A stretch of 64,000 bases of DNA, taken from Eledone cirrhosa. Taxonomy: Eukaryota. Both the position numbers and the translations under genes were made by a program. Within the stretch, counting starts at the first letter, position 1. Every line of letters begins with the position of its first letter. The stretch is taken from NCBI GenBank assembly GCA_964016885.1, contig OZ024741.1:407402001-407466000 (forward strand), in the 5' to 3' direction. Positions 57,002 through 57,600 of the stretch are shown one piece after another. Below the pieces are notes generated by a model that saw nothing but the letters and a program-made list of their open reading frames with translations, was not told the DNA's origin and did not search any database.

Positions 57002-57600
57002 TATAATGTATTTTGCAATACACTTTATGCTTAATTAAAAGCATTTTGAAGACCGTATTCTATTGTTTTAGAGTGGTGACAGACTCACTTACTTTAATCT
57101 CAGCAAACGGGGATATAAAGCCGACAAGACCTTGTTTCTGCATTTTTTTATGCTTATCAAGGCTAACTACTCCCTCCCGTCTACTGAGATCACTGATGTT
57201 ATATTCTTATAGAATTCTACTAAATAATCAGGAACTGATTATACAGAGCGGTTGCCGGTCAGGCAGAAATTAAAAATTAGAATTGGAGCTCTGAAATAGC
57301 CATATATATCTGAATGTATATATAATGTATTTTGCAATACACTTTATGCTTAATTAAAAGCATTTTGAAGACGGTATGCTATTGTTTTACAGTAGTGACA
57401 GACTCACTTACTTTAATCTCAGCAAACAGGCTTTATCTCCCCCTGTTTGCTGAGATTAAAGTAAGTGAGTCTGTCACTACTGTAAAACAATAGCATACCG
57501 TCTTCAAAATGCTTTTAATTAAGCATAAAGTGTATTGCAAAATACATTATATACACATTCATATATATATGGCTATTTCAGAGCTCCAATTCTAATTTTT
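57002..57600 (-). mobile_element. retrozyme-like element: 319-bp monomer, direct repeat and fold-back arm
   Basis: 57002-57110 is repeated at 57321-57430; 57429-57600 is an inverted copy; hammerhead at 57119-57164; (TA)n flanks; no credible ORF. Confidence 0.85.
57119..57164 (-). ncRNA. type I hammerhead, U3-A8 variant
   Basis: Minus strand: AGCC TTGATAA GCAT-aaaaaa-ATGC a GAAA CAAG-gt-CTTG TC^GGCT; one extra A before GAAA. Confidence 0.75.

Follow-up and report, generated by a model that had tools for sequence, protein, structure and literature searches.

A PLE-type insertion of a hammerhead repeat in Eledone cirrhosa with an inverted arm that starts at the predicted cleavage site

Does a genomic copy of a hammerhead repeat retain traces of how its RNA template was cut and copied? 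The question was raised by positions 57002–57601 of the window (the whole stretch of 64,000 nt of E. cirrhosa DNA that was analysed), for which a preliminary description had proposed an RNA-templated, permuted element with a fold-back arm starting at a hammerhead cleavage site. The role of the hammerhead in PLEs (Penelope-like elements) is described as unclear in the part of PMC8557442 compared here. In a model proposed for PLEs, cleavage leads to circles, and these to more-than-unit cDNA and tandems (PMC4209133, in part).

The surroundings of the locus were found to be microsatellite-rich, animal-like DNA. The locus is made up of a minus-strand 319-nt unit plus 121 nt and then a 173-nt inverted arm, the whole within (TA)n. 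When +1 is the first base past the predicted cut in minus-strand sense, the minus strand reads antisense from +173 to +1 and then sense from +14 to +440. The features are as follows.

56952..57005, no strand: (TA)27 microsatellite, the left target; a target-site duplication is not separable within TA
57002..57122, minus strand: copy A, the first 121 nt of the second unit, through the uncut predicted hammerhead; the 3' end of the main body, with about 8 nt ambiguous in TA
57095..57111, minus strand: 3' side of the 17-bp stem by which helix I is extended; within it, 57109 is the partner of 57178
57164–57119, minus strand: predicted type I hammerhead, with GUC^ between 57123 and 57122
57123..57430, minus strand: unit 1 of the main body, which extends from +14/+16 past one cut as far as the following cut
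57176..57192, minus strand: 5' strand of the 17-bp stem
57271..57320, minus strand: probable equivalent of the PLE 'tail', the arm 3' end lying about 42–50 nt past the main-body 3' end (unit register)
57321..57430, minus strand: copy B, the upstream repeat, identical to the arm over 110 nt and with 5 differences from copy A
57429..57430, no strand: GG microhomology at the head-to-head junction
57429..57601, plus strand: inverted arm in plus-strand sense, from the predicted cut (+1 to +3) to +173
57600..57744, no strand: (TA)12 and then (TG)60, the right flank

The direct repeats 57002–57111 and 57321–57430, spaced by 319 nt, showed 5 differences in 110 nt, and the inverted arm 57429–57601 differed from 57271–57430 at 2 of 160 positions (158 matched). 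In all, the locus holds 1.4 units and one complete hammerhead motif. The more-than-unit read-through noted in the preliminary description was thereby confirmed, as one 319-nt unit plus 121 nt on the minus strand, and the RNA-templated origin that it had proposed was supported. No ORF of at least 90 aa was present over the 319-nt unit, and the element was without the RT and GIY-YIG ORF of an autonomous PLE. The unit is a non-coding repeat of 150–450 nt with a type I hammerhead, as is expected of a retrozyme unit. The insertion is of the PLE type, with a partial tandem and a head-to-head inverted, 5'-truncated copy, and it has a tail at one end and an AT-rich or microsatellite target, with (TA)n on both sides.

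A type I hammerhead was predicted at 57164–57119, where the core boxes and three helices surround an NUH site: helix I has 4 bp, the core is of the U3-A8 kind, helix II has 4 bp with a 6-nt loop, and helix III is palindromic. A relaxed type I descriptor gave matches in 3 of 20,000 dinucleotide shuffles of the 319-nt unit. With Rfam, there was no match over the window at gathering and no hammerhead at 57119–57164 at E ≤ 10. An extra A (57139) stands before G12 in this copy, and the helix III palindrome carries a G-to-U change at 57129. The module of the hammerhead and the 17-bp stem, in which an internal loop and the 6-nt loop II are present, gave a folding z of −6.25 (0 of 200 shuffles). For the isolated 46-mer of 57119–57164 as a monomer, the hammerhead fold probability was 0.003; the dimer duplex of helix III was computed to be −11.2 kcal/mol. 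We also considered whether the 17-bp inverted repeat marks a MITE and decided against it: an extension of helix I accounts better for the stem, its G-U pairs point to the minus strand, and the insertion is not delimited by it.

Relatives of the unit were taken from sequencing data. Four of 12 candidate runs were aligned to one unit, three being one sample as contigs and one RAD raw reads; these runs are possibly from a related organism, and the best share of locus words was 0.36. The repeat family was abundant, with 1,544–1,867 contigs aligned per run. A pattern scan for paralogs gave 0 matches in viral contigs and 0 in prokaryote genomes, and the sole metagenome match (L001) was rejected, being a match of 23 nt due to chance in a contig that is unrelated and looks coding.

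In loose ends of the relatives' sequences, the U3-A8 core was seen to be kept. The extra A was absent from 192 of 282 reads of run X10, and the helix III palindrome was perfect at 57129 in 118 of 125 and 140 of 155 reads. At the helix II partners 57142 and 57151, matched changes were found (63 of 122 and 63 of 138; 76 of 159 and 74 of 187, all being per-position counts and not single-read linkage). The +1 base was changed in 72% of the depth of run X1, with no partner change among 40 of 121 rows. Because the descriptor matched so few shuffles and relatives show apparent compensatory changes, the predicted hammerhead with its U3-A8 core at 57119–57164 appears genuine; cleavage itself is a prediction. 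When compared with the family majority over 40 of 121 rows, copy A departed at 57059, 57075, 57109 and 57114, and copy B and the arm shared a departure at 57301 and probably at 57071. The stem partners 57109 (copy A) and 57178 (centre) were both off the majority, with C-G in place of U-A (chance of about 0.02–0.04). This partner swap indicates that the hammerhead module is likely a distinct inherited variant and not the result of decay in place.

The unit was compared with known systems through parts of the cited sources. Non-LTR retrozymes are non-coding hammerhead repeats of 150–450 nt expressed as circles, which are a proposed template (PMC7229834), and it is argued that retrozymes derive from PLE pLTRs (bioRxiv 10.64898/2026.07.22.740005). 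In the passages at hand, the locus resembles metazoan non-LTR retrozymes in its low-GC, non-coding unit of that size, type I hammerhead, high copy number and structured RNA (PMC7229834; bioRxiv 10.64898/2026.07.22.740005). The 4-bp helix II, the small palindromic helix III and the continuation of helix I past an internal loop are also shared, and PLE mobilisation has been proposed for both. Unlike active retrozymes as described there, the locus has one complete hammerhead and no array with at least two, as in a monomer-type derivative. It also differs from retrozymes in its U3-A8 core, and a PLE-type inverted arm with a tail was not found in the retrozyme descriptions compared. For Xenopus retrozyme dimers, 1 of 9 was reported in that preprint to be active and 8 of 9 uncleaved in vitro.

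EN+ PLE insertions, in the published parts compared, consist of a partial tandem and an adjacent inverted, 5'-truncated copy with a 30–40-bp tail, and (TA)n targets are typical (PMC8557442, PMC3846280). The locus agrees with them in the head-to-head inversion beside a partial tandem, the unequal 3' ends, the (TA)n target, the microhomology junction and the type I hammerhead in the repeat; unlike them, it is without an ORF, and its tail is about 42–50 nt compared with the published 30–40. PLE minimal hammerheads have U3-A8 cores, a palindromic helix III and paired motifs on opposite strands, according to the sections of PMC4209133 used. The hammerhead at 57119–57164 is similar in its covariant U3-A8 core, palindromic helix III and likely dependence on a dimer, but different in its helix II (4 bp here and 7–8 bp there), in having no extra base between 9 and 10.1 and in the extension of helix I by the 17-bp stem. 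Within these sources, the overall architecture is the known PLE pattern (PMC8557442, PMC3846280), and circular templates are an already published hypothesis (PMC4209133, PMC7229834). The element works like a non-autonomous PLE derivative of the retrozyme type, and the locus is very probably a PLE-mobilised hammerhead repeat.

A further feature, for which the passages compared on EN+ PLE insertions have no counterpart, is the position of the inversion at the predicted cut. As had been claimed, the arm was found to read in sense from the first base after that cut. The GG at 57429–57430 fits both sides, so the arm start lies between +1 and +3; there is no match to −1 in the preceding base. In the arm's numbering, the start of the main body falls at +14 to +16, and 11–13 nt are thus unique to the arm. 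Relative to the central copy, these arm-only bases have a substitution at 57114 and two extra bases at or just past the edge of the stretch, and they resemble the family majority. Because they differ from the central copy, the inverted arm, judged by its bases, is evidently not copied from either neighbour at the locus, in agreement with the earlier statement that they are no simple hairpin copy. A simple self-primed hairpin was rejected separately: it could copy nothing past +173 and so could not give the 440-nt long arm, which is about 270 nt longer than the short arm. Among the titles and abstract openings covered, no report of inversions at a hammerhead cut was found. The arm start at 57429 is suggestive of a footprint of RNA cleavage in vivo at this one locus.

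Other elements of the window were inspected. At 61314–62296, another family has the same anatomy, with a 550-nt unit, 230 nt and an inverted arm. Its degenerate hammerhead-like fold has GUC^ between 61574 and 61573, and the arm starts at +8, just past helix I. The direct copies are nearly identical, and 4 bases and 1 gap set the arm apart from them, which suggests that this arm may come from a different RNA molecule than the direct copies. At 62376–62977, a 466-nt unit plus about 29 nt contains a hammerhead that scored 36.5 bits with Rfam HH9, below gathering, and whose first post-cut base is 62601; the fold-back of this element coincides with a natural palindrome, about 170–198 nt downstream of that cut. 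The head-to-head repeat at 54732–55407 has an intact hammerhead in each arm (first post-cut bases 54951 and 55184), and its inversion is upstream of the cut by at least about 76 nt. Three insertions of one family, at 50529–50658, 54518–54633 and 55462–55580, all have their fold-back at one and the same short inverted repeat, to within a few bases; by eye, this recurrent inversion point lies about 40–50 nt upstream of a hammerhead-like 3' half and not at the cut. A further family (47684–48870 and 51266–51812), attached to (ACAT)n, forms partial tandems with an inverted piece at 48218–48323; a hammerhead scan of it found none.

The window also contains perfect 65-nt inverted repeats at 51840–51904 and 52740–52804, about 840 nt apart and each adjoining (TA)n, and satellite arrays at 1–11682 (55-nt unit, 212 copies, 97% matches) and 11903–44365 (38-nt unit, 855 copies, 81%). 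A broken PLE-like coding element was observed at 58000–61000, with an RT assigned by Pfam RVT_1 (E 2e-4) and Atlas HTH_animal/RVT_1 clusters and a GIY-YIG-like C-terminal piece seen by eye with no Pfam hit; it has no DNA similarity to the 319-nt unit. No autonomous partner sharing sequence with that unit, including a pLTR match, was found within the window.

Could the coincidence of arm start and cut be structural or due to chance, in an element that is otherwise the same PLE-mobilised one? We regard this as rather unlikely. Among the seven fold-backs of the window, three of which are one family as judged by eye, one is exact at the cut and two are within 10 nt of it (chance of about 0.012), and at least one exact start in seven is expected by chance at about 0.05 before selection by genome scan, with 400-nt units assumed where the size is unknown and with the second motif found post hoc. 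The other five invert about 40–75 nt upstream or 170–198 nt downstream of their own motifs, at natural hairpins or palindromes, which is in favour of a structural origin. Copying may stall or fold back at the extended helix I; the edge of the 17-bp stem is where the main body begins. Alternatively, a cDNA through the motif may self-prime via helix I, with the loop later deleted at an AGG microhomology; this microhomology is present and would give a route free of cleavage. In the part of PMC3846280 compared, palindromes at the inverted junctions of PLEs were read as self-priming. On the other side, two steps and a precise removal of the loop are required for the helix I route, the arm ends within a 3-nt window at the scissile bond (about 0.009 by chance for one junction), and the second family, at 61314–62296, also begins its arm close to its cut, at +8.

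The joints in relatives bear on the same point. Of 8 joints in total, 2 were between opposite strands, namely 57107/57285, seen in one contig, and 57112/57248, seen in 4 reads with 2 starts. Of these, the first has an end at +16 and the second at +11, and neither of the two lies at +1 to +3. These ends are near the cut and equally at the border of the 17-bp stem, so they fit a structural start as well as a cleaved one. Unitigs and RAD reads capture tight hairpins poorly; hence the joint and depth data are no refutation. Depth across the cut showed no step in any run (3385 vs 3510 in X1 and 262 vs 281 in X10). Over the hammerhead, the summed depth of contigs dropped to a few hundred-fold below its peak; this fall was rejected as evidence, because unitig depths were summed, the copy is divergent from its relatives there, the cut-off was 82%, and the raw reads of X10 showed no such fall. 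An arm start at the cut site as a general rule across the family is weakly supported.

The preliminary description had proposed a circular or multimeric RNA template and had held that paralogs lacking the permuted structure would count against the proposal; relatives were found to read through the predicted cut site. A circular RNA of 319 nt that was copied beyond a single round, as in the retrozyme model, with the arm from a reopened or linear monomer, would agree with this read-through, with a unit size typical of retrozymes and with the near-identical passes of the sister element at 61314–62296. Circular RNAs have been shown for retrozymes of other animals in the portion of PMC7229834 compared. 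Nevertheless, all 5 variable sites in the repeated stretch separate copy A from copy B and the arm (5:0:0), with p of about 0.004 under equal decay. One 319-nt circle predicts three near-identical copies of +14 to +121, and it therefore fits this split poorly unless a template switch or a conversion at a later time is also assumed. The states shared by copy B and the arm at 57301 (and probably 57071) are non-majority ones, and with a circle there is no evident cause for copying to end near +14. Folded as a circle, the unit is highly structured (z of about −4.4 to −4.6), but the linear fold is equally stable (z of about −4.0), and 5 of 10 control stretches from the repeat-rich window reached z ≤ −3 on at least one strand, so that folding z was rejected as evidence for a circle. 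We consider the single circle improbable, and in this the locus differs from the retrozyme circle model as given in the sources compared. A linear RNA from a donor with two unit variants, or two RNAs, would fit the sequence better. Of the two templates first proposed, the multimeric, linear one is thus favoured over one circle. Later homogenisation of copy B and the arm is possible, though not general in the window: at 61314–62296, no difference separates the direct copies in the 129 nt that they share with the arm, yet the arm differs, and the arms at 54732–55407 are 95% alike.

The variant pattern would be explained equally well by two events, in which a symmetric fold-back copy (57271–57601) entered the AT-rich site of an older copy in register, or by a template switch between two RNA variants. 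The palindrome is self-contained, with arms ending at 57271 and 57601; seven contigs of run X3 have (TA)n-rich loose ends at 57276, which are ambiguous; and a PLE endonuclease can nick its own repeat (PMC11167929, in the part compared). A seamless, in-register join is required, however, and both parts appear about equally far from the family majority (a rough count over 40 of 121 rows), so we give this account little credence. An assembly or long-read fold-back artefact is hardly credible: the near-perfect 160-nt palindrome would suit it, and the junction is known from the assembly alone, with no candidate run holding half of the locus words, but the arm has bases absent from both neighbours and 2 sites different from copy B, the window has six further fold-backs of other families with diverged arms, and the pattern is a known biological one.

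The mechanism that we cautiously prefer is a PLE insertion into (TA)n from a linear, more-than-unit RNA whose 5' end was made by hammerhead cleavage. A Penelope-like reverse transcriptase/endonuclease would insert a copy of the 319-nt repeat into a (TA)n run. A tandem donor would be transcribed, one hammerhead would cut, and the next would stay uncut; the two changes of the read-through hammerhead, rare in relatives, may account for the lack of cutting and could postdate the insertion. Nicks would be made in both strands of the TA target, and each strand would prime its own cDNA internally, one near +121 of unit 2 and the other near +173 of unit 1; these two start sites would account for the tail offset of 42–50 nt. 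The short cDNA would run off the cleaved RNA 5' end at +1, and its terminal CC would anneal to the GG at +14/+15 of the long cDNA. After trimming of the flap and filling-in of both strands, a head-to-head junction with 11–13 nt only in the arm would result. In twin priming of L1, two target-primed cDNAs are joined by microhomology and a 5' inversion is formed. The proposed scheme is like it in the two cDNAs, the microhomology joint and the 5' inversion; unlike it, the cDNAs here overlap fully (+14 to +173), so that two RNAs or template reuse would be needed.

Second-strand synthesis from the cleaved RNA 5' end, as proposed at first, is unnecessary when two antisense cDNAs annealed via CC/GG explain the junction; the other earlier suggestion, a completed cDNA end that was later trimmed, comes close to this reading. 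For the anole PLE protein, the part of PMC11167929 compared describes nicking and extension of both strands of AT-rich DNA, initiation at two internal sites and a predicted dimeric state. The same part reports no RNA-seq ends at the hammerhead cut of this PLE and that cleavage was not needed in vitro.

A wider proposal, which we put forward only tentatively, is that head-to-head junctions of PLE-mobilised hammerhead repeats may be footprints of germ-line self-cleavage: a linear template would begin where the U3-A8 hammerhead has cut, and a dimer of the PLE enzyme would copy two RNAs into two cDNAs. Against a cut-defined template stand the single locus, the 0 of 2 paralog joints at the cut and the absence of a depth step, and also the five window fold-backs away from their motifs, the low hammerhead fold probability of the 46-mer, the +1 change with no partner among the rows compared, the anole and Xenopus results cited above and the lack of an autonomous partner within the window.

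The locus ties a retrozyme-like unit to the insertion anatomy of PLEs, and it offers two read-outs from a genomic copy: the position of the arm start relative to the cut, and the identity of the two passes in more-than-unit copies. At 57002–57601, the former favours cleavage and the differences between passes disfavour a single circle; one locus settles neither. If junctions of this kind are indeed footprints of self-cleavage, genome-wide junction counts would test the roles of hammerheads in PLEs and retrozymes and of circles as templates.
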